Positions 10,279 through 64,000 are shown, counted from the stretch's first letter. The stretch is DNA of 64,000 bases from Candidatus Yanofskybacteria bacterium (GCA_003151795.1 PLYL01000008.1:3103-67102); one strand, 5' to 3'. A program made the numbers and translations. Notes: generated by a model from the sequence alone, not told the origin.

Positions 10279-10290
10279 ATTTCTCAGGAT

Positions 10291-27252: not shown

Positions 27253-28965
27253 GAGGCTGATTTCTTCTTTCAGTTGAGCGACGGCAGTGTCTATGAGCAT
27301 GGTGCCCATGTCGCCTTGACCGTGTTTGCGGACGGCGACGGTTTGCGCGTCGACTTCTTTGTCTCCGATCACGAACAGATAGGGGATTTTTTGGGTCTCG
27401 GCGTTGCGGATTTTTTTGCCGAGGGTTTCGTTTTCGTTATGAAGCTCAACCCGGACGCCGGCATGTTTTAATTTGTGCACGACGGCTTCGGCCCAGGCTT
27501 GTTGCTTTTCGGTTATAGTAATGACGGCGACTTGGACTGGCGAAAGCCAGAGCGGAAACGCACCGGCGTAGTGTTCAATAATAATTCCAAGGAATCTCTC
27601 AAGCGAGCCATACACTACGCGATGGACAACTACTGGCGTTTTTTTATTTCCGTCTCGGTCGGTGTAATAGAGTTCAAAGCGTTTCGGTAACTGGAAGTCA
27701 AGCTGAATAGTGCCCATCTGCCATTCACGGCCAAGACAGTCCTTCATTAAGATATCTATTTTTGGCCCATAAAAGGCGGCGTCGCCTTCTGCCACGATGT
27801 ATTCTTTGCCGGATTTTTTAAGAATCTCCCTAAGTTTTTCTTCAGCTTTATCCCAAGTCGCTTTCTCTCCTAAAAATTTTTCCGGCCTCGTTCCCAGGCG
27901 GAAAGAGTATTCAAGATTGAATATGCCATAAAACTTTTTACAGATTTCAAAAATATGTTCGTATTCATCTCCGATCATTTCTTCGGAGATAAAGTTATGA
28001 GAATCGTCTTGTTGGAATGAGCGGACTCGTAAGAGGCCATTAAGCGTCCCGCTTCGTTCATAGCGATGCAAACGATCGGTATCGGACAGCCGGATCGGAA
28101 GATCTTTGTAGCTCACTTGCATGGATTTGAAGACCACCATCGCATTCGGACAATTCATCGGTTTGATGCCGTAAATTTCGTTTTCTCCCATATCCGCGAT
28201 AAACATATCGTCTTTATAATGTTCCCAATGGCCGGAAATTTTCCAAAGTTCCGCCTTATTCACAAGCGGACTCGCTATTTCTTGATATCCGAGGGCACTA
28301 TGTTCAACTCGCCAGTAATTAACGAGTTCGTTGTAAATGATAAGTCCTTTCGGTAACCAGTAGGGCATGCCGGGTGAAGTTTCATGAAACATAAAAAGGC
28401 CGAGCTGGGGTCCGAGTTTCTTGTGGTCGCGCTTCCTTGCTTCTTCGAGGAGTATTAAATGTTTCTGCAGTTCGTCTTTGGTCGCGAAGGCTAGGCCGTA
28501 AATGCGGGTGAGCTGGGGATTCTTTTCATCACCGCGCCAGTAGGCGCCGGCGAGACGCGAGAGTTTGAAGGCTTTGGGATTGAGGTCTTTGATATTCTCG
28601 ACATGACCGCCTCGGCAGAGGTCGGTGAAATTTCCCGAAGTATAGAGAGTTATTGTTTCACCTTTTTTAACCAGTTCATCAATTAATTCTTCTTTGTAAG
28701 GGTTACTGGCGAATTGTTGCTTGGCTTCATCGGCGGAAACTTCTCGGCCTTCAAAACCTTGCCATGTTTTTAAAATCTCGCGCATCTTGTCTTCAATTTT
28801 CGGGAGGTCGGTGTCCGAAACTTTTTCCGGAATATCGATGTCGTAATAGAAACCATCGTCGATGGCCGGCCCGATGGCTAATTTAGAACCGGGATATAAA
28901 TCCAAAACCGCCGCCCCGAGCAAGTGGGCGAGAGAATGGCGGATATGTTCAATAGGGGAAGCCAT
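27244..28965 (-). CDS. thrS: threonyl-tRNA synthetase (no N-terminal TGS domain)
   Basis: HSLAHLL editing-domain motif, class II core, anticodon-binding domain. Confidence 0.9.
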   Translation of the reverse strand: MASPIEHIRHSLAHLLGAAVLDLYPGSKLAIGPAIDDGFYYDIDIPEKVSDTDLPKIEDKMREILKTWQGFEGREVSADEAKQQFASNPYKEELIDELVKKGETITLYTSGNFTDLCRGGHVENIKDLNPKAFKLSRLAGAYWRGDEKNPQLTRIYGLAFATKDELQKHLILLEEARKRDHKKLGPQLGLFMFHETSPGMPYWLPKGLIIYNELVNYWRVEHSALGYQEIASPLVNKAELWKISGHWEHYKDDMFIADMGENEIYGIKPMNCPNAMVVFKSMQVSYKDLPIRLSDTDRLHRYERSGTLNGLLRVRSFQQDDSHNFISEEMIGDEYEHIFEICKKFYGIFNLEYSFRLGTRPEKFLGEKATWDKAEEKLREILKKSGKEYIVAEGDAAFYGPKIDILMKDCLGREWQMGTIQLDFQLPKRFELYYTDRDGNKKTPVVVHRVVYGSLERFLGIIIEHYAGAFPLWLSPVQVAVITITEKQQAWAEAVVHKLKHAGVRVELHNENETLGKKIRNAETQKIPYLFVIGDKEVDAQTVAVRKHGQGDMGTMLIDTAVAQLKEEISLKK

Positions 28966-28967
28966 TA

Positions 28968-29030
28968 GTAATTAGCGATTAGGACTTAGTCAATAAAGAA
29001 TAACAAATAAATTCAGTAAGTTAAAGAGCT
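28968..29030. repeat. intergenic copy of AGGACTTAG/AAGAAT-type dispersed repeat
   Basis: attaggacttag… shares core with 34483..34546. Confidence 0.35.
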
Positions 29031-29492: not shown

Positions 29493-32400
29493 ATTGATTT
29501 CACATCATCACAGAGGAGCTTGAGGGCGCCGTCGCGGTCATTGATTTTGCCGGTGGTGACGACGATAGCATTTTCTTTAAACATTTCGGGATATTTTTCA
29601 TAGACATTCGGGAAGACGACGACTTCGATTTTTGAAGTGAGATCTTCAACCCAGGCGAACATCATCGGCCGGCCGGTTTTGGTAATTATTTTTTGAACTT
29701 TGGTCACAATTCCGCCGATTTTGATTTGGCTCGTGCTGTTTGGTTTCACGTCTTTGATGGCGACAGTCTTTTCTAATTTCATGGTTGGTGCGTATTCGTG
29801 GAGGGGATGGGCGGAAACAAAGAGGCCGAGCAGTTCTTTTTCCCACATTAATTTTTCGGAGTTGCGGGCGGGCGTGGTGGCATTGAGCCGAAAGGCCGGC
29901 AGAGCAATAGGGTCGTTGCCAAACAAACTGGCTTGGCCCATGCTAGTGCTTTTTTGTTTGTCGTGGGCGAAGGAAAGAAGGTTTTCCAGATTAAGCAATA
30001 ACATGTTCCGTTCGCCGAAAGAATCCAGCGCTCCGCATTTGATGAGGGCCTCGAGCGATTTTTTGTTGAGGTCTTTATTGTGCACTCGCGATACAAAATT
30101 TTCGATGTCGGTATAGGGGCCATTGGCTGTTCGTTCGGCGATAATCGCCTCGGCGATATTTTCGCCGAGATTTTTAATGGTCAAAAGCCCAAATCGGATT
30201 TGATCCCTTTGTTCCTTGTTCATTGTTCCCTGTTCACTGGCTTTAATGACCGTAAAATCTTTAAAAGAGGTGTTAATTTCCGGCGGTAAAACCGGAATTT
30301 TCATGCGCTGGCATTCTTCAATCACTTGAGCGACTCTCTCCGTGTCGCCCGATTCGGCCGTGAGAATGGCGCACATATATTCCGCGGAATAGTTAGCCTT
30401 CATGTACGCGGTCTGGTAGGCGACTCGGCCGTAGCAGGCGGCGTGGGCTTTATTGAAGCCATAGCCCTGGAACGGTTCGAATAAATTCCAGATTCCTTCG
30501 GCTTGTTCGGTCGTCATACCGCTATGGGTTTTACAACCTTCAACGAAAATAACATGCTGTTTGGCCATCTCGGCCGGAATTTTTTTGCCCACCGCTTTTC
30601 TAAATTTGTCGACGGATTCCCAATTGTAGCCGGCCAATTCCATGGCCGTGAACAGCAGGTCATCCTGATAGACCAAGACGCCGTAGGATTTTTCCAGCCA
30701 TTGTTTAGCTTTAGGGTGAAAATAAATAGTCGGACTCCGGCCTTGTTTGCGGGCGATGTACTCCGAGATGTTATTAATCGGACCGGGCCGATACAGCGCG
30801 ACCATGAGATTAATATCATGAATAGTGGTGGGTTTGAGTTCCATGAGATACTTAGTCATACCCGAGGAACCGCCCAGCTGGAAAACTCCTTCGGTATAGC
30901 CGTTGGCGAGCATGGTGAAGGTTTTTTTGTCGTCGAAAGGAATTTTTTCAATATCAATAGTGATGCCTTGGTGTTCTTTAACCAAGCGGACGGCGTTTTC
31001 TAAGATGGCCAAGTTGCGGATGCCCAAGACGTCGAGCTTAAGGAGGCCGACGCCGTCTTCGCCGACCGTGTACATGTCGTATTGCGTGATAAGGTTGTTG
31101 CCTTCTTTAGGATCGAACTGAATCGGCACGTATTCGATGAGCGGTCTGGGCGAAATAACGAGACCGGCGGCGTGGACCGAGACATGGCGGACCGTGCCTT
31201 CAAGCTTTTTGGCGATGTCCATAATCTGCCGAGTTTCCAAATCCCGTTCGTAGAGATTTTTTAATTCCGGTTCAAGTTCCAGCGCTCGTTCGATGGTCAT
31301 GGGGAATCCTTGAGAACCCATGGGGATGAGTTTGGCGAGCCGGTCGCCGACTTCGTAGGACTTGCCGGTGGCGCGAGCGACGTCCCGTACCGAACCGCGG
31401 GCGAGCATGGTGCCGAAGGTGCCGATTTGAGCGACTTTATCGGCGCCGTATTTCTTTTTGGCGTACTCCACGATTTCTTGACGGCGGTTATCGGCAAAAT
31501 CCATATCAATATCCGGCGCCGACGGGCGAAAAGGATTCAAAAATCTTTCAAACGGCAGCTGGAATTCAATAGGATTGACGCTAGTGATGCCGGAAAGATA
31601 GGCGACCAGGGAACCGGCGGCGGAACCGCGGACCGTGGTATAGATATTTGATTCGTGGGCAAAGCGAAGCAGGTCGGCGACGACCAAAAAATAGGGCGCG
31701 TAATTTTTGTTTTTGATAATCTCCAGTTCGTATTGGCGGCGGGTTTCGATTTCGGGGTTATTTTCTAATTCGCGTTCGACGGCCCCTTTTTTGGTCAGCT
31801 CGTCCAACATCTGATCGGATGTTTTGCCTGGTTCGAGTTCAAAATTAGGGAAGATGAATTTACCGAGGGTCAGTTCGATGTTGCAGCGGTCGGCGATTTT
31901 TTGCGTGTTCGCGACGGCTTCGGGAGTTTCCTTGAATCGTTCGACCGCTTCTTCGGTGGAAAGAAAATGATACTCGCCTTGGCCGGAAAATATCGCCGGA
32001 TCGCTGACGTCGGTGTGTGTGGAGATGGCGACCAAAGTTTTATGGGCGACCGCATCGTCTTTGCGGAGGTAGTGGGAGTCTTGCGTCGCGACGAGGGGAA
32101 TATTGTGTTTGCGGGCTAGCTCGAGAATCGCACTTTTCCATTCCGGGAACCATTCCATATCAGGATGGTGCATGATTTCCATATAATAGTTTTCGGGACC
32201 GAAGATGGCCTGGTATTCCAGAACAATTGCTTCCGCTTTTTCTTTGTCGCCGTGCTGAATGGCTCGGCCTAACTCACTGCCGGGACAGCCCGAAAGACAA
32301 ATCAAGCCTTCAGCGTGCTGGCGGAGCAAGTCTTTATCGACACGCGGTTTGTAATAGAAGCCCTCGAGGTGGGCCGAGGTGGTGAGCCTGATTAAGTTTT

Positions 32401-32695: not shown

Positions 32696-33222
32696 ATATA
32701 AAGTACTTGCCCGCCAAAATTTTGCTTTGCAAAACTTAGGCGGGTGAAGAGATGAACGAAATTATTTGTCGGATTTGAATCCATAGAGGTTTAAGCGCGA
32801 TTCACAGGATCAACCTATGCACGCTCGGATAAGTACTTAGAGATTGTATTTCATTGGCAGAAAGAATCCAGGGGATAACTAAAAAATAAAAAACCGCTGA
32901 AAATTTGACCACCCTAAGTCTCAAAGTTGGAATCATAAGCACCAGACGGTACGTACTAGAAGTGTGACAGGTAGAAGTCTTGCTTCTTTGCTGACCCGCA
33001 GGAACTATGTGTTTCGGTCATACTTTTTTCAAAGCATTTTTATAATACCAAGAGGATACGCATTTCAGCCGATGCTGCATCAAGCAACATATCGGGCATT
33101 AGAGTGGCCAAATTTTTAGAGGTCTACTTTTATTATACTCTTAAAAATTTATCACGCAATTGTGGGTAGGAAAATTATACTTGATTTTTATTAGGTAATG
33201 ATTTATAATACTGACCAAGGGG

Positions 33223-34257: not shown

Positions 34258-34482
34258 GTGGCAGTACCGAGACACCATATGGCCAAAGGGAAGCAGCTGC
34301 GCCGACGCAGTCATTTGGCGTTGAAGAGCGGCACCTTAACGAAATGCGCTCATTGCGCTAAAATGATTATGCCGCATCAGGTTTGCAAATTCTGCGGTTT
34401 CTACAAAGGCCGAGAAGTTGTAAATGTTCTCGGTAAGGAATTAAAGAAGCAGGAAAAGCGCACCGCACAGCGTACAAGATAG
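34258..34482 (+). CDS. rpmF: 50S ribosomal protein L32
   Basis: MAVP…RRRSH…C..C…C..C zinc-ribbon pattern. Confidence 0.75.
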   Translation: MAVPRHHMAKGKQLRRRSHLALKSGTLTKCAHCAKMIMPHQVCKFCGFYKGREVVNVLGKELKKQEKRTAQRTR

Positions 34483-34546
34483 AATTTAGGACTCAGGATT
34501 TAGGACTTAGATTTGACTAAGTTCTAACTTCTAAGTTCTAACTCCT
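34483..34546. repeat. intergenic inverted-repeat element (TAGGACT/TAGAACT units)
   Basis: left taggactcaggatttaggacttag vs right ctaagttctaacttctaagttctaa. Confidence 0.55.
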
Positions 34547-35074: not shown

Positions 35075-35084
35075 TAATTTAATA

Positions 35085-35151
35085 GAATTAAGAGTTAAGA
35101 ATTACGAATTAAGATTTTCAATCTTACTTCTTAATTCTTACTTCGTACTTC
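35085..35151. repeat. intergenic inverted-repeat element (AAGAATTA units)
   Basis: gaattaagagttaagaattacgaattaaga … tcttacttcttaattcttacttcgtacttc. Confidence 0.6.
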
Positions 35152-35160
35152 TTTGTGAAT

Positions 35161-39947: not shown

Positions 39948-40466
39948 ATGGGGAAAGCTCTGGAAAGAGGTGTTATTGCCACTAAAATCGACCAGCGTCT
40001 TTATAAGAACGCCGTTTTGTATTTTATTAAGTACTGTAATAATCGTTATCTCCACCAAACTAAACTTAACAAGCTTTTGTATTATTTAGATTTTATTTCC
40101 TATCGTGATAATAAAAAATCAGTTACGGAGGATGTTTATATTCATAAGCAATATGGTCCAGTGCCTGCACACGCAGATGAGATATTGACTCAACTCAAAC
40201 AGCAAGGTGCTATTGGAACAAGTATGTCTTCCCACAAAGACGGAGAGATGATAAGTTTTGAATTGAAAGATGAATCGCAATTAGATGAATCGGTTTTTTC
40301 TCCAGAACAAAAGAAGCTCCTCAAAGAAATTTGTGATGAGTTTGGGGGTTGGCCAACTGAAAAGATTGTTGCCCAAACTCATTTAGAAGCTCCTTGGTTT
40401 TATTCAAAGCCTTATGAAATCGTCGATTATGCCTACGCACAAGACATCGGTTTCTTCAGGAAATAA
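39948..40466 (+). CDS. Panacea (DUF4065)-domain putative antitoxin
   Basis: TKLNKLLYYLDF…HKQYGPVPAH… pattern typical of DUF4065 phage-associated proteins; AT-rich. Confidence 0.55.
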   Translation: MGKALERGVIATKIDQRLYKNAVLYFIKYCNNRYLHQTKLNKLLYYLDFISYRDNKKSVTEDVYIHKQYGPVPAHADEILTQLKQQGAIGTSMSSHKDGEMISFELKDESQLDESVFSPEQKKLLKEICDEFGGWPTEKIVAQTHLEAPWFYSKPYEIVDYAYAQDIGFFRK

Positions 40467-44399: not shown

Positions 44400-46745
44400 C
44401 TAGGATTCTTTAGATGAAGTGTCAATGACAGCGATTTCCCCACTAGTAGAATCTTCAATGGCCTTCGGCTTTTTGGGAGTTGAAAATTCACTACCCGGCT
44501 TAGGCTTTCCATATTTTTTAGCAGGTTTAACTGGTTTTGATTTCCATATTACCAATGCTTCCTGCAGTTCGGCTTCGCTTTCGGGTTTCTTGCCCATCAG
44601 GAAGGTACAATCGGGCCAGCGGGAACAGGCATAAAAGAGTTTACCACGGCCGCGGGATTTTTTCTCCACAACATCGCCAGTCAGACAGTTCGGGCATTTG
44701 AATCCGGTCTTGTTGAAGATTTTGGAAATACCCTTACATTTAGGATAATCGACACAACCGAGGAAATAGCCGAAGCGCCCGCGGATTACTTTCATGGGTT
44801 TGCCGCAGATAGGGCACATTTCGCCTTTGGTTTTTTCTTCCAGTTCTTTTATTTTGGCGGCTTCTTCGGGCATAGGAAGCGAAACTTTGCTCCCAGGTTC
44901 GGGACAGGCGAGGAATTTACCGTTGCGTCCGAATTTAACGAGCATCATTTTACCGCAGTGCGGGCAAGGCGTAGTCGATTCGACGATTAGTTTTTCGACG
45001 AGTTCCGTTTTTTCTTTTAAGTTCTTGGCGAAAGGCGCGTAGAATTCTTCCACCACCGGCACCCATTTAATTTTGCCTTCGGCAATATCATCAAACTCTT
45101 CTTCAATGTGCGAGGTGAAATTTATGTCGATGACTTCTGGGAAGTTCTCAACGAGCATGTCGTTGACCGAAAAGCCAATTTCGGTGGGTTTATATTTCTT
45201 GTCTTCTTTTTCGACGTAGCCGCGGTCCTGAATCGTGGTGAGGGTCGGCGCATAGGTCGAAGGACGGCCGACGCCCGCGGCTTCAAGGGTTTTAATGAGC
45301 GAGGCGTCGGTGTATCTGGGCGGCGGTTCGGTGAAGTGCTGGTCTTTGGCGAGCTTAATCAGATTTAATAATTCTTTTTGGGACAATTCCGGAAGTTGGC
45401 CGTCTTCGTATGAGTCTTCTTCAGTCTTTTCGTCGTCTTCTTTGGTTTCGGTATAGGCGCGGATGAAGCCGTCAAATTTAACCGCTTGGCCGTTGGCGCG
45501 GAAGGTGTATTTTCTTGATTCTTGATTCTTGCTTCGTGCTTCTATATCCGCGGCGGTTTGGTCGAGAATGGCAACCTGCATCTGGCAGGCGATGGTCCGT
45601 TTCCAGATCAAGTCATAGAGGCGGAGCTGGCCGGAATCCAAATCTTTGTCGAGACTGTCGGGCAAGCGGGATAAATCGGTGGGCCGGACGGCTTCGTGAG
45701 CTTCCTGGGCGCCTTTGGATTTGTTGAGGAATGAGCGGGGCGCGTCGAGGCAATATTCCTTGCCAAATTGTTTCTTGATGACTTCTTGGGCTTGAGCCAG
45801 GGCAATTTCCGAGATATGCAAACTGTCGGTGCGCATGTAGGTAATCATGCCGGTTTCGTATAATCTCTGGGCCAAGGTCATGGTCTGTTTGGCGGAGAAG
45901 CCGAGTTTCTTGGCTGCTTCTTGCTGGAGAGTGGAAGTCGTAAATGGCGCGGGCGGGGTCCGTTTGACTTCTTTTTTCACGACGTCGATGACTTTATATT
46001 CGGCGCCGACTAATTCGTCGGTAATTTTTTTAGCGTCGGCTGGATTTTTAATGCCCAATCGGTCGATTGATTCTTCGCCCCCGCCTGGCCGGCCGGCAGG
46101 GATTTTGACGAGCCGAGCTTTGAAAGTCTTGTCCTCGTCTTTTTTAGAAAGGTCGGCTTCGACGGACCAGTATTCTTGGGGCGTGAATTTTAGGATTTCG
46201 CGTTCGCGCTCCACGACGAGGCGGACGGCGACGCTTTGGACGCGGCCCGCGGAAAGGCCGGAGCGGATTTTTTTCCACAGGAAGGGCGAGAGTTTGTAAC
46301 CGACGAGGCGGTCGATGATGCGCCGGGCCTGTTGGGCGTCGACGAGATTCTGGTCGAGCTGGCGGGGATGAGCGATGGCTTTTTCAATCGCGGGTTTGGT
46401 AATTTCATGGAAGACGACGCGTTCGGTCTTGCCGGCCGTGGTTTTCTTATCCAGGCCGAGGGCGTGGGCGAGATGCCAGGCGATGGCTTCGCCTTCGCGG
46501 TCCGGGTCGGTGGCGAGAATCACCATGTCGGCTTTGGCCGCCGCGGTTTTGAGTTCGCTGACAATCTTCTTGGCTTTTGTCGGAATAATATATTCAGGTT
46601 TGAAATCGTGGGCGATATCGATGCCGATGCCTTTCTTGGGTAAGTCGCGGATATGGCCGAAAGAGGATTTAACGACAAAATCGCCGCCGAGGAAGCGGGA
46701 GATGGTTTTAGCTTTGGTTGGGGATTCGACGATTATTAACTGCAT
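44400..46745 (-). CDS. topA: DNA topoisomerase I
   Basis: Toprim N-terminus, catalytic core, three C-terminal zinc ribbons, Lys-rich tail. Confidence 0.95.
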   Translation of the reverse strand: MQLIIVESPTKAKTISRFLGGDFVVKSSFGHIRDLPKKGIGIDIAHDFKPEYIIPTKAKKIVSELKTAAAKADMVILATDPDREGEAIAWHLAHALGLDKKTTAGKTERVVFHEITKPAIEKAIAHPRQLDQNLVDAQQARRIIDRLVGYKLSPFLWKKIRSGLSAGRVQSVAVRLVVEREREILKFTPQEYWSVEADLSKKDEDKTFKARLVKIPAGRPGGGEESIDRLGIKNPADAKKITDELVGAEYKVIDVVKKEVKRTPPAPFTTSTLQQEAAKKLGFSAKQTMTLAQRLYETGMITYMRTDSLHISEIALAQAQEVIKKQFGKEYCLDAPRSFLNKSKGAQEAHEAVRPTDLSRLPDSLDKDLDSGQLRLYDLIWKRTIACQMQVAILDQTAADIEARSKNQESRKYTFRANGQAVKFDGFIRAYTETKEDDEKTEEDSYEDGQLPELSQKELLNLIKLAKDQHFTEPPPRYTDASLIKTLEAAGVGRPSTYAPTLTTIQDRGYVEKEDKKYKPTEIGFSVNDMLVENFPEVIDINFTSHIEEEFDDIAEGKIKWVPVVEEFYAPFAKNLKEKTELVEKLIVESTTPCPHCGKMMLVKFGRNGKFLACPEPGSKVSLPMPEEAAKIKELEEKTKGEMCPICGKPMKVIRGRFGYFLGCVDYPKCKGISKIFNKTGFKCPNCLTGDVVEKKSRGRGKLFYACSRWPDCTFLMGKKPESEAELQEALVIWKSKPVKPAKKYGKPKPGSEFSTPKKPKAIEDSTSGEIAVIDTSSKES
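45514..45542. repeat. in-frame dispersed-repeat copy inside topA (encodes EARSKNQESRK on - strand)
   Basis: cttgattcttgattcttgcttcgtgcttc. Confidence 0.45.
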
Positions 46746-46868: not shown

Positions 46869-47732
46869 TTATTCTGACTTGCGAAAAATTCCGCCGGCCA
46901 TTTGTTTGATATGGCCCTGGATTTCCATGAGCGCGAGTGCGCCCATAACTTCTGACGCGCCAAACTTACTCTCTTCTATGATAGCGTCGATGTTTAAAGG
47001 GCCGTGTTCTTCGAGCACCGCAAGAATAGTAGCATGGGTTGGGTCGATTGTGGAGAGACGCGAAGATTTTGCGAGGGGAAGTTTGGAATAATCATCCAGG
47101 ACATCATGCGCAGAGGCGACTAGTTTTGCGCCGGTCCGAATGAGTTTATGCGGGCCCATCGATTTCGATGAAAAAATATTTCCCGGCACTGCGAAGACAT
47201 CGCGATTCTGTTCTCCGGCCAGCCGAGCTGTAATTAAAGAACCGCTCTTTTCATCGGCTTCGATAATGAGAACACCTTTTGATAAACCACTGATGATACG
47301 GTTTCGTTCGGGGAAGGACTGCTTGCCCGCTGGCTTCTTGCCAGGATGCTCGGAAATTATTAAGCCATTATTTTTCAAAATATCCAGCCCGAGCCGACGG
47401 TTTGTTTCCGGCGTTATAGTATCAATGCCTGAACCAAGGATGGCGATGGTCTTGCCGCCGCAATCAAGCGTGGCGCGATGGGCGACAGCATCAATACCCA
47501 AGGCTAGACCGCTCACAATCGTGAAATGGCGGGCGAGGCCAGGGACAATTTGCTGGGCGGCTTCTCGGCCATAGGGCGTCATCGAGCGCGTGCCGACGAC
47601 GGCGAAGCATTCCGTTTTGAATAACGCGATATTTCCACGGCAATATAAAACTTCCGGCGGATCCGAAATGTGTTTCAGGAGTTTCGGATAAGCCTTTGAT
47701 GTTCGCTCGACTTTGATGACGGGATAATCCAT
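46869..47732 (-). CDS. dprA: DNA processing protein DprA/Smf
   Basis: VGTRSMTPYGREAAQQIV…GLALGIDAVAH pattern. Confidence 0.85.
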   Translation of the reverse strand: MDYPVIKVERTSKAYPKLLKHISDPPEVLYCRGNIALFKTECFAVVGTRSMTPYGREAAQQIVPGLARHFTIVSGLALGIDAVAHRATLDCGGKTIAILGSGIDTITPETNRRLGLDILKNNGLIISEHPGKKPAGKQSFPERNRIISGLSKGVLIIEADEKSGSLITARLAGEQNRDVFAVPGNIFSSKSMGPHKLIRTGAKLVASAHDVLDDYSKLPLAKSSRLSTIDPTHATILAVLEEHGPLNIDAIIEESKFGASEVMGALALMEIQGHIKQMAGGIFRKSE

Positions 47733-50292: not shown

Positions 50293-51075
50293 ATGGCTAA
50301 AAAATATATTGTCGCCAACTGGAAAAATCATCCCGACTCTTGGGCGGAAGCTGAAAGTATTTTGAATTATATTGACGAGCATTTAAAGGGCATAGCGAAT
50401 CAAGAATCGTCTCTCGTTGTTTGCCCGCCATTCGTGTTTCTCGAAGAAGTTTCTAGAGTCATACAATTATCTCAACTTACCCAGAAAGCCGAACTTGGCG
50501 CGCAGGATATTGCAATAAATGACTCAATATCATTGACGGGGGGAATTTCGGGCATGATGTTGGTCAAACTTGGCGCCCGCTACGTGATTATCGGCCACTC
50601 TGAACGGCGTTGGCCTCGCGGTGAAAGCGCCGGCACCGGCGAGTCAAATCAAATCGTGAACTTAAAAATTAAACAAGCCTTGGCCGACGGCTTAATTCCG
50701 ATTGTGTGCGTCGGCGAAAAAGACCGGGCCGACGATTATATTAAATGGCTGAAGCAACAGGTCGGCGCGACGTTTGCCGGTTTATCCGGCGATCAAATCA
50801 GCCGGTGTTTAATTGCTTACGAACCGGTCTGGGCCATCTCGACCAACCCCGACGCCCGGCCCGACACGCCCGAATCCGCACTGGAATCAATCTCCGCGAT
50901 TCGAGATTTTTTGGCCGAAAATCATTCCCCGGCCGACGTCAGAATTCTTTACGGCGGTTCGGTGACCGAAAAAAACGCCAAAGACTTTCTTTCGTTGTCT
51001 GAAATCGCCGGTGTCCTCGTCGGTGGCGCCAGCATCCGCAAAGAAGAATTCGTCCAGATTATCAAACAGGTCTAG
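50293..51075 (+). CDS. tpiA: triosephosphate isomerase
   Basis: ANWKNH…, IIGHSERR; ATG 50293 (track 50239 is an upstream extension). Confidence 0.9.
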   Translation: MAKKYIVANWKNHPDSWAEAESILNYIDEHLKGIANQESSLVVCPPFVFLEEVSRVIQLSQLTQKAELGAQDIAINDSISLTGGISGMMLVKLGARYVIIGHSERRWPRGESAGTGESNQIVNLKIKQALADGLIPIVCVGEKDRADDYIKWLKQQVGATFAGLSGDQISRCLIAYEPVWAISTNPDARPDTPESALESISAIRDFLAENHSPADVRILYGGSVTEKNAKDFLSLSEIAGVLVGGASIRKEEFVQIIKQV

Positions 51076-51149
51076 GATTTGCTCTATACTTTACAGTGTG
51101 TTATAATTTGACTCCCCAGTATTAGTAGAGGGGAGAAAGGTAAATAGAC

Positions 51150-52613: not shown

Positions 52614-53071
52614 TGAAAAACAAAATTACTATTTATACCGATGGGGGAGCGAGGGGGAATCCGGGGCCGGCGGGGATTGGGATTGTCATTGACGGATTGG
52701 CGGGCGGGAAGAAAACATTCGGCGAATATATTGGCGAGACGACCAATAACGAAGCCGAGTATCGGGCGTTGATTGTGGCATTGCAGAAATTAAAAAAACT
52801 GGCGGGCAAAAAAAAGTTGGAACAAGTTGATTGCTACGCCGACAGCGAATTGATGGTCAAACAGTTAAACGGCGAATATAAAGTTAAAGACACGAATCTC
52901 CGGGGACTTTTTATGGAAGTTTTAAAACTCAAATCGGAATTCAAGGTTCCGATATTATTTCATCATATCAAGCGGGCCCAAAACGCCGAAGCGGATGAAT
53001 TACTGAACCAAGTCCTTGATAAAGAGACGGGAAAACCCAGGTTTGATTACAAAGCTAAGGATATGGTATAA
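52613..53071 (+). CDS. RNase H-like protein
   Basis: IYTDGGARGNPGPAGIG…NNEAEYRAL…D catalytic residues. Confidence 0.75.
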   Translation: MKNKITIYTDGGARGNPGPAGIGIVIDGLAGGKKTFGEYIGETTNNEAEYRALIVALQKLKKLAGKKKLEQVDCYADSELMVKQLNGEYKVKDTNLRGLFMEVLKLKSEFKVPILFHHIKRAQNAEADELLNQVLDKETGKPRFDYKAKDMV

Positions 53072-53072
53072 T
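53043..53072 (+). promoter_or_regulatory. rnpB promoter: -35 ttgatt, 18 bp, extended -10 TGgTATAAT (inside 3' end of upstream CDS)
   Basis: read directly; RNA P1 begins ~7 nt downstream. Confidence 0.55.
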
Positions 53073-53075
53073 GAG

Positions 53076-53603
53076 GCGTCAGTACGCAGGCAATTGGTCG
53101 CCATAGGCGACAGGAAAGTCCGGGCACTATCCCGCACATAGCAAGCACTAGTTGCTTTCGCAATACGTATAGCGTGTTTGCGAAGAAAACGAGAATAAGA
53201 CGAGATACGTTGTTAATTAAACAATGTGTCGCAACAGTATTGCCAGTGCTTGCTATGTGCGGGAAACGGTAATGGGTAACTCCCATACACGGCAACGTGA
53301 GAGGTGCGAGCAGAGACGGCTTGTCTCGAAAGAGACGGCAAGCTAAACCCAGACCATTGATTTATCAAAGGTCACAGCTTAGCTCTCATCGGGGATACAA
53401 GATGAGAGGTGAAACGGCTAAATCCTTACTGGAGTGCAAGATCAAAGTCCCGCCCGCTTTTACCTAAAAGTGGGGCGGGATTACAAGTAGATCGCTTGAG
53501 CTCGCGAGCAATCGCGAGCCTAGATAAATAATTGTCGAGGCCCGCCACACTCATTCATGAGTGATGAGGGCTAGTACAGAACCCGGCTTATTACGTACTG
53601 ACC
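53076..53603 (+). ncRNA. rnpB: RNase P RNA (bacterial type, with AT-rich expansion)
   Basis: GGAAAGTCCGGGC (P4 5'), …GGGAAACGGTAA…, CCTAGATAAATAATTGTC, ACAGAACCCGGCTTA (P4 3'); P1 pairing of gtcagtacg with cgtactgac. Confidence 0.85.
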
Positions 53604-53638: not shown

Positions 53639-55059
53639 TGAAAAATGCTTCTGGACATGTTAGTATTTATATTGTGAAAAAAGCCGACCTATTCTTCAAT
53701 GTCATCCGTCTGCCCGTTGATTTCGGGATGCTCATGTTAGCCGGGCTGACCGCCTATATTCTCCGCACTCAAGTCTTGGCGAGTCTTCGGCCCGTTTATT
53801 TTCAGCTAAACTTGCCGTTAATCTCGTACCTTTCCCTCGTGGCAGTGGTGGCTTTAGTGTTTCTTGGCGCCTACGCAATTTCCGGATTATATTCCATGAA
53901 AATCCGCATCGGCAAGGCCGAGGAACTTCTCAAAGTTATTGTCGCGTCTTCGGCCGGCCTTATGCTCGTTATCGTTTTCATATTCTTGCAGCAAGCTCTA
54001 TTTAATTCTCGTTTTCTCGTTCTCGGCGCATGGATTCTCGCGATGTTATTTGTTTCCGTTGGCCGGCTCTTGGTGCGCTATTTCCAGTATATCGCGATAA
54101 CTCGCTATGACTTCGGTATTCAGCGGGCGGTCTTGATTGGCGGCGATGAACTCGCGAAAGGATTGAAAACTCAACTCGAACAGAACCCATCTTCCGGCTA
54201 TCGGATTATCGCGCACTGGGACAAGCCTCAACTGGAAACACTTGCCCAGTTGGGCGATACGGTGGACGAAGTTTTACTGGTCACACCTCATTACGCCGAC
54301 GAACAGATCATTGATTTGGTAGACTTCTGCCACGAACATCATATCGTGTTTAAGTTCGTCCCGAATTTATACAAAACGCTTACTAAACATCTTGATGTCG
54401 ACACGATTGGCACGGTGCCGGTGATTGAGCTCAAACGTACCCCACTGGATGGCTGGGGCAAAGTATTTAAACGCACTCTTGATATTATTGGTGCCAGCCT
54501 AGGGCTTATTATTTTGTCTCCGGTATTTTTAATAATTGCTATCGCGGTGAAGTTAAATACTAAAGGGCCAGTATTTGTGTCGCTTGAACGGGTGAGTAAA
54601 AATAGAAAATTTGATTTGTATAAATTCCGTTCAATGATAGACCACGCCCATGATTTAAATCACGAATTACGTTCTAAATACAACGATCGCCCGAATGCTG
54701 GTCCGTTGTGGAAAATGCGCGATGATCCACGCGTGACTGCTATCGGAAAATTTATTCGAAAAACAAGATTAGATGAATTGCCCCAGCTCTGGAATGTTTT
54801 GAAGGGCGATATAAGTCTCGTCGGTCCGCGTCCGCATCAGCCTGATGAGATTGCTCGATACCAAAAACATCACAAAAAAGTCCTCGCCATCAAAGCCGGC
54901 GCGACGGGCCTGGCCCAGGTTTCCGGCAGTTCCGACTTGCCGTTTGACGAAGAAGTTACGCTCGATAGTTTCTATATTGAAAATTGGTCGATGGGCATGG
55001 ACTTCAAAATTATCTTCCGAACCGTCTTTAAGATGTTGCACGACCACTCGGCAGTCTAA
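53638..55059 (+). CDS. polyprenyl-phosphate sugar phosphotransferase (WbaP/CpsE-type 'bacterial sugar transferase')
   Basis: C-terminal domain [28 protein letters not shown]…GP…; TTG 53638 or ATG 53728 start. Confidence 0.8.
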
Positions 55060-55063
55060 CCTA

Positions 55064-55174
55064 GAAGCAAGAATATAGAGTTAAGAATTAAGCGGGATTG
55101 AATGCTGAGCTATAAATTGGTAGCTTTGTTTCGTGCTTGATCTTAATTCTTGATTCGTAATTCCTACTTCTTCC
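55064..55174. repeat. intergenic inverted-repeat element of AAGAATTA family (arms 55064-55096 and 55132-55174)
   Basis: gaagcaagaatatagagttaagaattaagcggg … cgtgcttgatcttaattcttgattcgtaattcctacttcttcc. Confidence 0.6.
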
Positions 55175-55176
55175 TT

Positions 55177-56256
55177 ATGCACATCGCTTTTGTCCATGAA
55201 TATCTCAATCAGTTCGGCGGGGCCGAGCGGATGCTGGCCGTGCTCGCGGAGATGTTTCCGACAGCGCCGATTTATACGTTGCTTTATGATGAAAAGGCGA
55301 CCCGCGGATTATTTAAAGGCCGAGCCGTCAAAACTTCATTCCTTCAGAAATTTCCAGGGGCGGTAGCTCATCACGAATGGTATCCGTTGCTGATGCCTCT
55401 CGCGATTGAGCAATTTGATTTCTCCGCCTACGATGTCGTCATCTCGGTTTCGGCCTCATTCGCGAAAGGCATTATCACCAAACCGGCCGCTCGGCACATT
55501 TGCTACTGTCTCACGCCGCCGAGATTTCTTTGGGACAATAGTCAGAAGTTTGGCAAGGACTTTGGCTTTCCGCCCGTGATTCGATTCGCCAGCCAGCCGC
55601 TGATTTCGTATCTGCGGATGTGGGATCACTCGGCGGCCGATCGCGTCGATGAGTTCTGGCGGATATCTGATTTTGTGGGCAAGCGAATTCAAAAATATTA
55701 TCATCAAGATTCCAAGCTCATCTATCCGCCCGTCGACACGACAGCCTTTCCCATGGCCGCCGAACCGCCCGAAGATTATTTTCTTATGGCCGGCCGGCTC
55801 GTTTCTTATAAAAAATTTGATGTCGCGATTAAGGCATTCAATGAACTGGGACTACCGTTAAAAATTGTCGGCACGGGCCCGGAGTTGGGGAATTTAAAAC
55901 GCCTGGCTAGTAAAAATATCGAATTTCTCGGCCAAGTGGATGACGCAGAATTGGCCCGCCGATACCAAGAAGCTCGCGCTCTGATATTCCCGCAAGAAGA
56001 AGACTTCGGAATCGTGCCGTTGGAAGCGATGGCCTCCGGCCGGCCCGTGATCGCCTATCGGGGCGGGGGAGCGGAAGAGACAATCATTGAAAATGAAACC
56101 GGGATATTTTTTGATACTCAAACTCCCGAAGCTATTATTGAGGCGGTCAAAAAATTTAGCGCTCAAAAATTTTCTTCAGCGACATGCCACGCTCAAGCGG
56201 AGCGATTCAGTACGTCTCGTTTCAAAGAGGAAATTAAAAAAGCCCTGAACCTATGA
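55177..56256 (+). CDS. GT4 glycosyltransferase
   Basis: EDFGIVPLEAMASGRPVIAYRGGGAEE; ATG 55177 downstream of repeat. Confidence 0.8.
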   Translation: MHIAFVHEYLNQFGGAERMLAVLAEMFPTAPIYTLLYDEKATRGLFKGRAVKTSFLQKFPGAVAHHEWYPLLMPLAIEQFDFSAYDVVISVSASFAKGIITKPAARHICYCLTPPRFLWDNSQKFGKDFGFPPVIRFASQPLISYLRMWDHSAADRVDEFWRISDFVGKRIQKYYHQDSKLIYPPVDTTAFPMAAEPPEDYFLMAGRLVSYKKFDVAIKAFNELGLPLKIVGTGPELGNLKRLASKNIEFLGQVDDAELARRYQEARALIFPQEEDFGIVPLEAMASGRPVIAYRGGGAEETIIENETGIFFDTQTPEAIIEAVKKFSAQKFSSATCHAQAERFSTSRFKEEIKKALNL

Positions 56257-57428: not shown

Positions 57429-60005
57429 ATGCCAGGCAGTGAAAATGGCGGGCAAGCGATGTTTGACGTGAAGCCGGTGGATGAATCCGGCGCTCTTGAT
57501 GTTCAAAAAATCGACGCCGTTCAGCCGATAATCAACCTCGCCTCATTCAGGCCCAAGAAGCGCGCCGTGGCGCAGAAGCAAGAAGCAAGAATTAAGAATC
57601 AAGAGGAAAAAATTACCTCGCTAGTTACGCCGTCCGAAGAAATGTTGCCGCCGGTGATTGGTTTGCCGTCTCGCCAGGATATCAAAGAGCAGTTCGAGGA
57701 ACTCATGAATCATGACCTCGATCTGGGTATCGAGCTGGCGCAAATAAATATTATTAACCCACCCAAATTTTCCGGAGAAAAACTTAGGCGGGCAAGGCCT
57801 CGCTATCAAATTATTCAAAGCCGTTCGTCGAGAGTCCCCGCGCCTGAAGATGACCTATACGCGCCGCTCATCGCCGCTATCCATCAATCGGCCAAAACCA
57901 TTTCTCATGAAGAATATATCAGTCCGGAAATTCTCGCCGAGCTCGATGCAACCCTGATACCCAACGAGCTTTCTCAATCGGCCGAGACGGATGTGCGATC
58001 GCTCTTTGCTGGACCATCGATTCAGCTCATCGCTAAAAAGAAATCTTTTCCGAAGGCGTCTCGTATTCGCAAATGGCCTAAATTTAAAATTCCTCGAGCC
58101 TATGTTTTTATCGCTATTGCTGCGGCCATTGCGCTGGCGCTTATCATTCTTTATGGCTTTCACGTGAAGCGCCAGATTGTGCAACAGAGCTCGGCCGCCG
58201 TGGCCAATCTCCAGACCGCTCAAGGCGATTTAAAAGCGCTTGATTTTAAAAACGCTTCCCAAGATTTCTTTTCGGCCTACGCTGATTTTTCTCAAGCCGG
58301 CAATAGTTTGAATGTCTTCGGCGCGGGCATTACCGACATTCTTTCAGCTCTGCCGGGCGGGAGTACGCTCAAGTCCGCCAAGAATTTGGTCCAAGTCGGC
58401 CAGTTGCTTTCGGCCGCTGGCACATCAATGACGACGGCGCTTGATGCGGTTGCCAAGACCGGCGCAATTAGCGACCCCACTAATCCCCAGGTGCCAATCG
58501 GGCCGATTGTCAGCGCTTTGAAGAAGGCGCTTTTAGCTTCTCAACAGCAAGTGGCCCAAGCGAGCACGCTCATGGCTGATATTGATAGCAGTATCATTCC
58601 TATCGACAAGCAGGCCGGCTTTGATGATTTGAAAGCCAAACTGCCAGAGTTGGAAGCGGGCGTGAATATGAGCGCCGACTATGCCAAGTTTTTTGAAAAT
58701 TTAATCAATAACGGTAACGCCAAATATCTTGTGATGTTCCAGAACGGTTCCGAACTTCGGCCCACGGGCGGGTTTCCGGGGACGTATGGCGTGGTCTCGT
58801 TTACTGATGGCAAGATGGACAGCCTGTTTGTTGATGATGTCTATAATCTCGACGGCCAGCTCAAAGAAAACATTATCCCTCCGCTTCAGCTTCAGCACAT
58901 TACGCCCAATTGGGGGATGCGCGATTCCAATTGGTATGTCGATTTTCCAACGTCGGCCCGTAACATTCAAGCCTTTTATAAAAAAGAATCTGGCCAAAGC
59001 GTGGATGGCGTAATCATCATCAATCCCGAAATGATTGCGAAGATTCTCGATATTGTCGGGCCGATTGATATGCCCCAATACCACCTCACCCTCACGGCTG
59101 ATAATGTCCTCACGACCATCCAAAGCCAAGTCGAGTATGGCACGAATCGGGTCCAGCCTAAACAAATCGTCAAAGATTTCGCGCCGTTACTGCTGGCAAA
59201 AATATACTCCGCTGGTTCAGATAAATGGCTTCAAATTTTCAACACGCTTATCTTAAGCATGAATCAGCGCGATGTCTTGATGTCTTTTAATAACTTATCT
59301 CTCGAAAGCTTCGTGACTGACAAAGGCTTCGGGGGCCAAGTCCAGGAGGCGAAAGGCCAGGACTATCTGATGCCCGTCATCACTAACATCAAAGGTTCTA
59401 AAACCGACGCTGTCACGGATACGTCATTCGCAATCGATACGACATTTGACGGTACAACCGCTGTCCACACGCTCACCATTACCCGCCAACATAACGGCGG
59501 CGGGGAGAAGTTTGGATTCTATAATAAACAAAATCCGGCCTATGTCCGCGTCCTCGTGCCTGATGGTGCAGAACTGGTTTCCGTGACTGGCAATGACCAG
59601 CCGAACTTCGCTCCGATTATCAACTACGCGAAAGATAAGAGTTTTGTTCGTGATGACGAATTGAATGTTTTCGAGACAAGCGGGACGACCGACAATGCGA
59701 CTGACGTCGTAACCTATCGCGAATCCGGCAAAACCGAATTCGGCTTCTGGCTCATCACCGATCCCGGAAAATCAAAGACCGTCACGGTCACTTATCGCGT
59801 CCCGAATGCCTTGACTGATAAGGCCTACCAACTCTACATCCAGAAACAGCCCGCTCTCGTGGTAAAGAATTTCTCATTCTCGATGCAAAAACCTGACGGT
59901 CTCATGCCCGACGCTTCGGCTCCGGTCCTGACTACTGATGGTTCGTCATACGACTACTCGGCACCGCTCACCGAAGACCTTGCCGTCAAGGTTAATTTCA
60001 AGTAA
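57429..60005 (+). CDS. DUF4012-family membrane-anchored extracytoplasmic protein
   Basis: single N-terminal TM (AYVFIAIAAAIALALIILYGF); YLVMFQNGSELRPTGGFPGTYGVV DUF4012-like core. Confidence 0.6.
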   Translation: MPGSENGGQAMFDVKPVDESGALDVQKIDAVQPIINLASFRPKKRAVAQKQEARIKNQEEKITSLVTPSEEMLPPVIGLPSRQDIKEQFEELMNHDLDLGIELAQINIINPPKFSGEKLRRARPRYQIIQSRSSRVPAPEDDLYAPLIAAIHQSAKTISHEEYISPEILAELDATLIPNELSQSAETDVRSLFAGPSIQLIAKKKSFPKASRIRKWPKFKIPRAYVFIAIAAAIALALIILYGFHVKRQIVQQSSAAVANLQTAQGDLKALDFKNASQDFFSAYADFSQAGNSLNVFGAGITDILSALPGGSTLKSAKNLVQVGQLLSAAGTSMTTALDAVAKTGAISDPTNPQVPIGPIVSALKKALLASQQQVAQASTLMADIDSSIIPIDKQAGFDDLKAKLPELEAGVNMSADYAKFFENLINNGNAKYLVMFQNGSELRPTGGFPGTYGVVSFTDGKMDSLFVDDVYNLDGQLKENIIPPLQLQHITPNWGMRDSNWYVDFPTSARNIQAFYKKESGQSVDGVIIINPEMIAKILDIVGPIDMPQYHLTLTADNVLTTIQSQVEYGTNRVQPKQIVKDFAPLLLAKIYSAGSDKWLQIFNTLILSMNQRDVLMSFNNLSLESFVTDKGFGGQVQEAKGQDYLMPVITNIKGSKTDAVTDTSFAIDTTFDGTTAVHTLTITRQHNGGGEKFGFYNKQNPAYVRVLVPDGAELVSVTGNDQPNFAPIINYAKDKSFVRDDELNVFETSGTTDNATDVVTYRESGKTEFGFWLITDPGKSKTVTVTYRVPNALTDKAYQLYIQKQPALVVKNFSFSMQKPDGLMPDASAPVLTTDGSSYDYSAPLTEDLAVKVNFK
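57575..57606 (+). repeat. in-frame dispersed-repeat copy (encodes QEARIKNQEE)
   Basis: gaagcaagaagcaagaattaagaatcaagagg. Confidence 0.45.
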
Positions 60006-62856: not shown

Positions 62857-64000
62857 ATGAATATTAGAAATTTTTGTATCATCGCCCACATTGATCATGG
62901 AAAATCGACCCTCGCGGATCGATTTTTAGAATTGACGGGTACGGTCGAGAAGCGAAAGATGCACGAACAGTATTTGGATACCATGGATTTGGAGCGCGAG
63001 CGAGGTATTACTATTAAACTCCAGCCGGTGCGGATGAATTATCAATACAAAGACGAAGCCTACATGCTTAATCTGATTGACACTCCCGGGCATGTTGATT
63101 TTACTTATGAAGTTTCGCGGTCGTTGGCGGCCGTGGAAGGGGCGATACTTTTAGTGGACGCATCCAAAGGCGTCCAAGCCCAGACGCTCGCGAATTTACA
63201 CCTCGCCCAACAGCAGAAACTAGTAATTGTACCCGTGATAAATAAAATAGATTTGCCGAATGCCCGCACCCTGCAAGTCAAAGAAGAACTGGCATACTTA
63301 CTCGGTATTGAGCCGGAAGAGATTCTAGAAATATCCGCCAAAAGCGGGTTAGGCGTCGAAGAACTTCTTCAGCGCGTGATTGAAAAGGTACCTTCACCCT
63401 CCCAAATTTTGTCTGACAAAAATTGGGAGGGCAAGCCAACCACAACTTCAGCCGAAGTCGAATTGAAGGCGCTCATTTTTGATTCTTCTTTTGATACCTA
63501 TAAAGGCGTGATCGCGTATGTCCGCGTCTTCAGCGGTTCCTTAAAACAGAGCATGCCGATTAGCGCGTACGCGTCGCGGGCGAAGGCCGAAGTGCTTGAA
63601 GTCGGCTATTTTTCTCCCGGTTTGGTCGAATCAAAACTTTTGGGTCCGGGTGAAATCGGCTATATCGCGACAGGCCTAAAAGATCCAGGCCAGATTCGGG
63701 TCGGCGATACGATTACAGATCAGAATTACGAAGCAAGAAGTAAGAATCACGAATTTAAACCTCTGGCGGGCTACAAAGAACCTCGGCCGATGGTGTTCGC
63801 CAGTTTCTTCCCCGTCGAAGGCGAAGCCTATGATCTGCTCAAAGACGCGCTGTCGAAGCTCAAGCTGACCGACGCCTCGCTGATTTATGAGCCGGAATCT
63901 TCCGCCGGACTGGGCCGGGGCTTTCGAGTTGGATTTTTGGGGATGCTGCACGTGGAAATTATATCCGAGCGGTTGCATCGGGAATTTAATTTGAATTTAA
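62857..64000 (+). CDS. lepA: elongation factor 4 (LepA), 3'-truncated by window edge
   Basis: IIAHIDHGKSTLADR G1, DTPGH G3, NKID G4; not in ORF track because no stop in window. Confidence 0.9.
   Translation, partial: MNIRNFCIIAHIDHGKSTLADRFLELTGTVEKRKMHEQYLDTMDLERERGITIKLQPVRMNYQYKDEAYMLNLIDTPGHVDFTYEVSRSLAAVEGAILLVDASKGVQAQTLANLHLAQQQKLVIVPVINKIDLPNARTLQVKEELAYLLGIEPEEILEISAKSGLGVEELLQRVIEKVPSPSQILSDKNWEGKPTTTSAEVELKALIFDSSFDTYKGVIAYVRVFSGSLKQSMPISAYASRAKAEVLEVGYFSPGLVESKLLGPGEIGYIATGLKDPGQIRVGDTITDQNYEARSKNHEFKPLAGYKEPRPMVFASFFPVEGEAYDLLKDALSKLKLTDASLIYEPESSAGLGRGFRVGFLGMLHVEIISERLHREFNLNL
63724..63756 (+). repeat. in-frame dispersed-repeat copy inside lepA (encodes NYEARSKNHEF)
   Basis: gaattacgaagcaagaagtaagaatcacgaattt. 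Confidence 0.45.

Follow-up and report, generated by a model that had tools for sequence, protein, structure and literature searches.

The closest published case to the arrays described here is that of the TAACTGA heptamer direct repeats of marine Beggiatoaceae, cyanobacteria, and some Bacteroidetes (MacGregor 2015, PMC4679880). These repeats occur in 2-6 copies, mostly a few nucleotides 5′ of start codons and only seldom in open reading frames (ORFs), in genomes with few Shine-Dalgarno (SD) sites; there is no sign of a mechanism for transposition, and the repeats have been suggested to act post-transcriptionally (PMC4679880). More broadly, heptanucleotides are the commonest simple repeats of 5-11 nt in most prokaryotes and have been attributed to polymerase slippage (Mrazek et al. 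2007, as summarised in PMC4679880). Tandem repeats of Borgs are described by Schoelmerich et al. (2023, PMC9879509) as arising independently and locally, evolving rapidly, and creating hydrophilic or disordered protein segments. Here we analyse a stretch of 64,000 nt (hereafter the window; 48% GC) that forms part of the genome of a Candidatus Yanofskybacteria bacterium, which belongs to the Patescibacteria or Candidate Phyla Radiation (CPR), and in which a preliminary description had flagged a 111-bp intergenic element. We find that this feature, with arms spanning 55063-55171, is an intercistronic hairpin whose arms are two inverted arrays of 4-5 degenerate heptamers, and that heptamer mini-arrays of this kind (3-5 units of 7 nt, 21-38 nt) pervade Patescibacteria genomes. 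The explanation we tentatively prefer is that they form a Patescibacteria-wide class of sequences that are generated in place and persist through selection or drive acting on the nucleic acid; the flagged element is one hairpin that combines two of them.

Other repeat systems invite comparison as well. Heptanucleotide simple sequence repeats, together with the short tandemly repeated repetitive heptamers of cyanobacteria, reportedly reflect a preference for 7-nt units outside the contingency genes of pathogens and a 7-nt slippage register; they are said to be mostly intergenic and variable in copy number, with coding repeats mostly having a unit length that is a multiple of three. Rickettsia palindromic elements (RPEs) are said to be discrete elements of ~100-150 bp with a family consensus, inserted whole and without a transposase of their own. 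The repetitive extragenic palindromes (REPs) of proteobacteria, with the bacterial interspersed mosaic elements and the doublets known as REPINs that contain them, are reportedly imperfect palindromes of conserved sequence that are excluded from coding regions and linked to REP-associated tyrosine transposases (RAYTs), with mRNA stabilisation among their roles. The units of Borg coding repeats are said to be multiples of 3 nt.

The flagged pair of arrays fills the 116-nt spacer between a sugar-transferase gene on its 5′ side and a GT4 glycosyltransferase gene on its 3′ side. The 5′ arm (55063-55093, + strand; AGAAGCA, AGAATAT, AGAGTTA, AGAATTA, then AG) starts 4 nt past the TAA stop codon (55057-55059) of the Bac_transf sugar-transferase gene, and the 3′ arm (55141-55171, + strand; TCTTAAT, TCTTGAT, TCGTAAT, TCCTACT, then TCT, the complement of nGAAnnA units) ends 4 nt before the ATG (55176) of the glycosyltransferase gene. 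Each arm comprises 4-5 tandem copies of the degenerate unit nGAAnnA or its complement, so that the repeat unit is 7 nt long and not, as had been proposed, an 8-9-mer. The arms, of 30 nt each, are 77% complementary and lie 49 nt apart, and the feature therefore possesses terminal inverted repeats, a trait of miniature inverted-repeat transposable elements (MITEs). Folded as RNA, positions 55055-55180 form a single long imperfect hairpin of -37.4 kcal/mol (z -4.8, equalled by 0 of 200 shuffles), within which the non-repetitive centre (55094-55140, + strand) is predicted to fold into a separate small stem-loop (GAGCUAU...GUAGCUU). We found no promoter or terminator consensus in the spacer, and Rfam did not match the element, its sole match in the entire window being one tRNA.

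The arms belong to a family of ~13 short arrays of the degenerate heptamer nGAAnnA in the window, with 4-5 units each and a GAA or GGA core common to all. Matches to four successive units, (GAANNAN)x4 with ≤3 mismatches, numbered 31 in ~10 clusters against 1.4 expected (0 of 100 shuffles reached 31), and the word ARGAATTA was found 19 times against 6.8 expected from shuffles. When period-7 self-similarity was scored irrespective of the unit, 12 arrays were recovered compared to 0.5 in shuffles; other periods were near background except for 14, the double of 7, which was equally enriched, and the Tandem Repeats Finder gave a period of 7, 14, or 21 in 17 of its 37 rows for the window. Given the GC content of the window, AT-rich low complexity does not explain this enrichment. 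The dispersed family of at least 10 copies that had been proposed is thus confirmed, and all of the sites assigned to it are present at or within a few bases of their earlier placement, together with an extra array in dnaE.

TopA relatives assign the window to Candidatus Yanofskybacteria. For comparison with relatives, we used two sets of 80 loci each (L-numbers below), one from genomes and centred on topA, the other from groundwater metagenomes and centred on gatB (L081-L160). Across 1.2 Mb of relatives there were 146 period-7 arrays, against 4, 29, 29, 48, 7, and 3 for periods 5, 6, 8, 9, 10, and 11, respectively, and a stricter detector found 102 near-perfect heptamer arrays in 2.0 Mb of CPR DNA against 0 in 185 kb from other phyla. 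These near-perfect arrays had 3, 4, or 5 units in 18, 52, and 32 cases, respectively, and none had 6 or more, unlike arrays of periods 5 and 6, whose length decays geometrically; the bounds of 21-38 nt were alike for coding and non-coding arrays. Density was ~1 array per 5-20 kb, and although non-coding DNA is ~5-fold enriched, more than half of the arrays lie within ORFs. Three settings can be distinguished. Some arrays stand singly by start codons, others are paired in inverted orientation within spacers, where they form long stems with regular mismatches, and others again are in-frame inserts in surface loops of housekeeping proteins.

The likeness of these arrays to the TAACTGA repeats lies in the 7-nt unit, the short arrays, and the lack of evident transposition, and may extend to the proximity to start codons in SD-poor genomes; several properties set them apart. 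The TAACTGA system uses one fixed heptamer across phyla, whereas we counted 148 canonical heptamers among 253 arrays, with TAACTGA absent from the 30 commonest units listed, and the units fall into genome-specific families: arrays at the same locus had a unit within 1 mismatch of each other in 18.7% of pairs, compared to 5.7% between loci (matched by 0 of 2000 permutations). Only one inverted pair was reported among 170 sets of TAACTGA repeats, compared to 37 inverted and 6 direct among the 53 adjacent pairs seen here. Their ORF copies lie at protein ends, mostly of hypothetical proteins, whereas ours lie in internal loops of essential enzymes; and they reach up to 43 copies in some species, whereas the present arrays never exceed 5 units. 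Two simpler regularities were considered and rejected, namely a small unit vocabulary pointing to one conserved binder (identical units are only 2.7-fold above expectation) and a purine-rich arm that always comes first (19 vs 18). A literature search found no relevant report of heptanucleotide or heptamer repeats in Patescibacteria or CPR, in keeping with the earlier claim that the family had not been described for this lineage, and the heptamer mini-arrays of Patescibacteria are apparently undescribed so far.

One possibility is that these are ordinary heptanucleotide microsatellites, neutral and functionless products of polymerase slippage. Local derivation of the units, their wide vocabulary, the enrichment of arrays in non-coding DNA, and the abundance reported for heptanucleotides in prokaryotic genomes (Mrazek et al. 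2007, as summarised in PMC4679880) would all agree with such an origin, but the behaviour of the arrays over evolutionary time does not. We found no indels of 7 nt or its multiples in 166 kb of aligned near-identical contigs from different samples (mostly ≥99.5% identical), which also led us to reject hypermutable contingency-type microsatellites. In addition, array 1 of gatB is identical at 40 of 42 nt between the window and L091, with both differences synonymous, and falls within the top 0.2% of windows in that comparison, against an identity of 69% for the gene and 45% for its third positions. Between the window and L002, identity amounts to 92-97% in the topA array, compared to 82% in the gene and 57-58% at its third positions; the list of shared-array pairs from which this comparison comes was chosen for shared units and is thus ascertained, whereas the gatB case is robust to ascertainment because the sequences are colinear, ungapped, and share an irregular unit. 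Hairpin arms flanking nusB in L109, L102, and L134 are 90-97% identical, whereas the third positions of nusB and rnc are only 36-46% identical; arm similarity does not simply follow the proteins, as L083 has the proteins closest to those of L109 yet the most divergent arms. Because the arrays are better conserved than the surrounding genes, exceeding even their synonymous sites, something acts on the nucleotide sequence itself.

Together with the absence of length variation, this conservation above host genes largely refutes a neutral microsatellite origin, and the lengths, which peak and then stop abruptly instead of decaying geometrically like those of periods 5 and 6, the genome-specific unit families, and the prevalence of inverted pairing count against it further; we consider it very improbable. 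What the present arrays share with heptanucleotide simple sequence repeats is the head-to-tail arrangement of 7-nt units, and they differ in being of small fixed size, stable between strains, conserved, often inverted, and in frame through increments of ~3 units (21 nt).

Of the in-frame arrays of the window, two lie in gatB, the first (24020-24066, + strand; AAATCCG and AAATTCG units) within a 12-residue insertion in a β-hairpin loop, and the second (24574-24614, + strand; GGAATTA, CGAAGTA, GGAATAA, TGAATTA) forming part of a 15-residue insertion in an inter-domain linker. The miaA array (25893-25940, - strand; sense AGAAGTA, GGAATTA, TGAATTA, GGAATTA, GGAATGA) corresponds to a 13-residue insertion and is 96% complementary over 23 nt to the second gatB array, 1.3 kb away. 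The dnaE array (30202-30235, - strand; GGAACAA-type units in the sense strand) lies within a 12-residue insertion, the topA array (45509-45549, - strand; sense AGAAGCA, CGAAGCA, AGAATCA, AGAATCA, AGAAAAT) is a 7-residue insertion in a β-hairpin loop, and the lepA array (63716-63756, + strand; AGAATTA, CGAAGCA, AGAAGTA, AGAATCA, CGAATTT) is located at a 6-residue insertion. A seventh array (57574-57615, + strand; AGAAGCA, AGAAGCA, AGAATTA, AGAATCA, AGAGGAA, AAAATTA) is found in the region encoding the N-terminal part of a DUF4012 protein.

All coding arrays of the window are in frame, with the purine-rich strand as the sense strand, and they are single arrays or inserts of 18-45 nt and varying size. 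Six of the seven were tested by alignment with solved homologues (topA, lepA, both in gatB, miaA, and dnaE), and all six matched gaps of 6-15 residues, which bears out the earlier claim of in-frame copies within essential genes. The suggestion that such copies preserve frame and encode hydrophilic loops likewise holds, since 56 coding arrays across relatives had a mean hydropathy of -0.95 in the frame used, compared to +0.19 in the other five frames. These arrays thereby resemble RPEs, which are also dispersed between genes and in frame in essential genes, add hydrophilic surface segments, have hairpin potential, and lack their own transposase; the difference is that the present coding copies are single arrays without a fixed consensus, whose units vary by lineage at each site and appear locally derived. 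Borg repeats offer a parallel in that local repeats write new hydrophilic segments into proteins, although 7-nt units force reading in all three frames and the arrays are stable and conserved.

Other kinds of insert were observed in the same permissive loops. GC-rich palindromic in-frame inserts (GGGCGAGCCTCGCCCGC...GCGAGGCGGGCCGCC, peptide GRASPALLERGGPP) occur at the GatB linker site of L096, L098, and L102, an insert of this type is nested within the AGAGACA array of L100 and L101, and a perfect palindrome is present in MiaA of L107; these inserts, which share loops with heptamer arrays, are closer to RPEs than the arrays are. A short insert of the CCTTCGACAGGCTCAGGG type (peptide PSTGSG or PSASSG) recurs across genes and lineages, at GatB site 1 of L088, L118, L123, L133, L150, and L152 and in the TopA loop of L004, and may be another dispersed mini-element.

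Outside coding regions, inverted pairs fill spacers at three places in the window, one being the flagged feature. The second pair, of AGAATTA type (35084-35152, + strand; -19.7 kcal/mol, z -3.7), has ~7 nt between its arms, occupies the nusB-rnc spacer, and ends 2-8 nt 5′ of the RNase III start (GTG 35155 or ATG 35161). The third, of TAGGACT/CTAAGTT type (34480-34543, + strand; -24.3 kcal/mol, z -3.4), lies directly 5′ of nusB (GTG 34553). A single array (28960-28995, - strand; TAGTAAT, TAGCGAT, TAGGACT, TAGTCAA on the + strand) directly adjoins the start codon (ATG) of thrS, a minus-strand gene ending at 28965, and forms no hairpin (fold z +0.3). Around nusB of L109, a hairpin element of ~100 nt is present on both sides (18401-18498 and 18995-19100), with 99% identity over 98 nt, and nusB of L115 is likewise bracketed by ~100-nt hairpin copies (19853-19958 and 20491-20615; 92% over 52 nt and an additional 30-nt piece). 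The window also has a hairpin on each side of nusB, with different units.

The origin of the arrays was examined at a β-hairpin loop of TopA (...VDI.A-loop-Y.FRANGQ...), which carries arrays of differing heptamers in at least 17 lineages, with units that include AGAAGCA, ACTAGAA, ACTACAA, GCAGACA, AAGCTAG, AGCTACA, ACCTCTA, CTTAGCC, GCCTCAA, CACTACC, AATGACA, and CAGCAGT. The loop array is common to the window and L002 and absent from L001 and L003, the nearest relatives of the window, and from non-CPR controls. Most TopA alleles with an array are 21 nt (3 units, 7 codons) longer than a baseline allele to which they otherwise correspond, and the units often contain conserved flanking codons: CTTAGCC spans the Leu-Ala of DILA, CACTACC includes a conserved Tyr codon, and GCTACAA begins at a conserved Ala codon. 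Units at two loops of GatB and one of MiaA behave in the same way and resemble the conserved codons just 5′ of them (GAAATT and AAATCC, GACCTA and CAACCTA). The use of different heptamers by different lineages at the same loops, and their continuity with conserved flanking codons, indicate that the arrays originated in place. The same unit also tends to recur at different sites of one genome, as with AGAGACA at both GatB sites of L100 and of L132, and CAACCTA and CAACTTA in L097.

The preliminary description had likened the family to RPEs, and a non-autonomous element of RPE, MITE, or REPIN type would account for several of these observations: array-armed hairpins and half-sites would have been spread by a transposase encoded elsewhere, and coding copies would be tolerated insertions. 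One unit family is found at ~13 sites in 64 kb, units are common to arrays of one genome, and the second gatB array and the miaA array have rare variants of the unit in common and in identical order (96% over 23 nt). Near-identical ~100-nt copies occur twice each in L109 and L115, with a further copy in another context in L119, and a complete inverted array pair lies inside topA of L057. The arms are conserved while the centres vary, as in MITEs, arm similarity departs from the protein phylogeny, and array size is fixed. Several results nevertheless speak against mobility. We found no second full-length copy of any of the three hairpin elements of the window, either in the window or in 2 Mb of relatives, and the three lack mutual full-length similarity, having only the 7-nt unit type in common. 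No target-site duplication was found at 55063/55171, where the flanks (TAACCT before AGAAG..., and TCCTTATG after ...CTTCT) contain no direct repeat, and no transposase, integrase, or RAYT gene, the kind of partner envisaged earlier, was found among ~55 screened ORFs of the window. Coding inserts range from 18 to 45 nt, the units at each site differ by lineage and continue conserved flanking codons, and as many as 148 canonical units are found among 253 arrays. A mobile palindromic element is thus not borne out, and we regard this explanation as unlikely. The comparison with REPs is similar: short units (~20-40 nt in REPs) arranged as inverted doublets that form spacer hairpins, and genus-specific REP sequences, are points of likeness, whereas the present arrays are tandem heptamers, lie mostly in ORFs, and are not accompanied by a RAYT gene in the window.

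A distinct arrangement was observed in L047, where inverted repeats of ~175 nt (1-175 and 2183-2355), each made of several heptamer arrays joined together, flank a 2-kb segment 5′ of topA. The segment carries pth-like and DprA-like genes, as judged by eye and by synteny with the window, and the repeats could mediate long-range RNA pairing or delimit an invertible segment. A composite transposon was considered and rejected, as the 175-nt inverted repeats flank pth and a DprA-like gene and no transposase.

In the stems formed by paired arrays, 5-6 pairs alternate with 1-2 unpaired bases in a strict 7-nt rhythm, and the three paired elements of the window fold with z from -3.4 to -4.8. No promoter or terminator consensus was found in the paired arrays, which sit within operons. 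In 16 of 18 lineages the nusB-rnc spacer has a strong structure, regardless of sequence class. Spacers between co-directional genes are commonly structured in this group, the 170 CPR spacers of 60-170 nt having a median folding z of -2.7, with 52% at or below -2.6 compared to 24% of 17 spacers from other phyla. We considered whether the hairpin 5′ of rnc is a specific RNase III autoregulatory leader, which is a weak candidate because the same 52% of comparable spacers are equally structured. Covariation is uninformative for the hairpin arms because they hardly vary and no pair is variable.

An alternative role is that of binding sites for a protein that reads ~7 nt per subunit or domain, such as an oligonucleotide-binding (OB)-fold protein of the type of ribosomal protein S1 or the cold-shock proteins, in translation initiation or mRNA control, a role of the kind put forward for the TAACTGA repeats of Beggiatoaceae, with coding copies as by-products or extra sites. 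Among 119 non-coding arrays, 50 end between -6 and +25 nt from the start of a long ORF, mostly within 8 nt, although spacers are short and the proximity is therefore partly trivial. In L053 and L026 the array constitutes the entire leader between a consensus promoter and the topA ATG. A loose SD-like motif precedes 14 of 64 window genes, which suggests that this genome initiates translation largely without SD pairing; for the same reason, the missing SD beside arrays is uninformative. Promoter-like sites were also noted, three in the window having an extended -10 (TGnTAnAAT), at 10286-10324, 51074-51112, and 53039-53077. An array of 4-5 units would suit a protein with 4-6 OB domains or a small oligomer, the arrays are conserved at the nucleotide level, and the TAACTGA repeats provide a precedent, the same paper also citing CspB binding with one protein per heptamer (PMC4679880). 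On the other side, start-adjacent arrays are unbiased in strand and in composition (G<C in 24, G>C in 25), so that a G-poor strand beside the start codon was rejected as a signal; units are very many, with several per genome, while S1 and cold-shock proteins are conserved and of low specificity; and stems would sequester half of the paired arrays. Taken together, binding by such a protein seems to us quite doubtful.

We return to origin in place followed by maintenance on the nucleic acid, for which the following sequence of events can be proposed. Arrays would first arise by reiterated copying of a resident 7-nt word, through a stutter of replication or repair in a 7-nt register and not by transposition; the comparison of lineages shows the local origin, and the enzymology is our supposition. 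Newly formed arrays survive only where they are harmless, as the distribution described above shows: in spacers, or in those protein loops where the addition amounts to whole codons and encodes hydrophilic peptide. Once formed, arrays are length-stable, conserved at the nucleotide level, and built of genome-specific units, and would thus be under selection, or a drive, that acts directly on the DNA or RNA. Within polycistronic mRNA, paired arrays such as the flagged one would most likely serve as an imperfect duplex of ~30 bp that controls processing, stability, or translation, and a candidate reader is RNase III, which is encoded in the window beside one paired array.

A number of points weigh against this proposal. 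Structured spacers are usual in CPR genomes, and the rnc hairpin is therefore only mildly special. No compensatory changes were found in the hairpin arms, so that what is conserved is the sequence, structure is at most a putative selected trait, and processing of the hairpins is a supposition. A single-stranded RNA signal would be expected to favour one strand with respect to the downstream gene, which the arrays do not. On the mutational side, plain slippage from ~1.5 to ~4.5 units in an essential gene would pass through lethal frameshifts, and a one-step addition of ~21 nt must consequently be assumed. Insert sizes at GatB site 1 depart from exact multiples of 21 nt. The ceiling of 5 units holds also in non-coding DNA, where frame is irrelevant, and is unexplained by the mutational model. 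Lastly, genome-specific unit families and the two near-identical 100-nt copies around nusB in L109 and L115 would also fit copying between sites.

A bolder extension, which we offer as speculation that is on balance unlikely to be correct, is that the arrays form a new phylum-wide class of cis-elements read in a 7-nt register by a lineage-specific trans-acting system, whose preference would decide which locally formed arrays spread. Such a system could be a periodic DNA- or RNA-binding protein, or it could be the DNA-uptake and recombination machinery, which would then exert a molecular drive, much as with the dialects of DNA uptake sequences and uptake signal sequences. The latter are a resemblance only: they too are genome-specific motifs, coding as well as intergenic, often in inverted pairs, conserved beyond codon constraint, and unaccompanied by a transposase, but they mark DNA for preferential uptake by the competence machinery and consist of a single well-defined motif at ~1 per kb, whereas the present arrays are sparser and the signal would be the array and not a single motif. 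If a trans-acting reader exists, it would explain the genome-specific units, the fixed size of 4-5 units, the nucleotide conservation, the inverted pairs, and the repeated use of the same loops in essential proteins.

At the density observed, a tiny and dense Patescibacteria genome of ~1 Mb would hold on the order of a hundred arrays, including copies in the genes for topoisomerase I, the DNA polymerase III alpha subunit, GatB, MiaA, and LepA. If the arrays are functional, a major uncultivated part of the bacterial tree would possess a regulatory or DNA-handling system new to science. If they come instead from a special mutational process, that process inserts new segments of 6-15 residues (often 7) time and again at the same loops of essential proteins, and would account for some of the many lineage-specific insertions of these organisms. 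In practical terms, arrays could be mistaken for mobile elements, may disturb phylogenies built on marker-gene alignments, and can serve as lineage-specific markers.

Several other features of the window were noted. A GC-rich hairpin repeat (GCCCGCC...GGCGGGC) occurs in two copies, at 32706-32748 and 57754-57796, that are 77% complementary over 43 nt, one adjoining the dnaE start codon and the other within the DUF4012 coding region. An 85-nt repeat with 91% identity between its copies (20210-20294 and 20823-20907) lies directly 5′ of or overlapping the starts of nusG and rplK; a small CCGCC...GGCGG hairpin stands at its beginning, and it may represent a leader element common to both genes. The gyrB gene (16532-19933) has a product of 1133 residues with an intein (Intein_splicing domain, residues 465-887) ahead of the Toprim domain. 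A 39-nt tandem repeat of 3.6 copies (1574-1760), which is Pro/Thr-rich, is found in a gene for a PKD-domain protein, and the segments 1837-2042 and 3557-3759, ~1.7 kb apart, are 86-88% identical, which suggests paralogous surface-protein modules. Finally, the window encodes a SocA/Panacea antitoxin-domain protein (39948-40466), an N6/N4 DNA methylase (15318-16433), and DprA (46869-47732), the last directly beside topA, a dprA-topA neighbourhood that is also present in L047.

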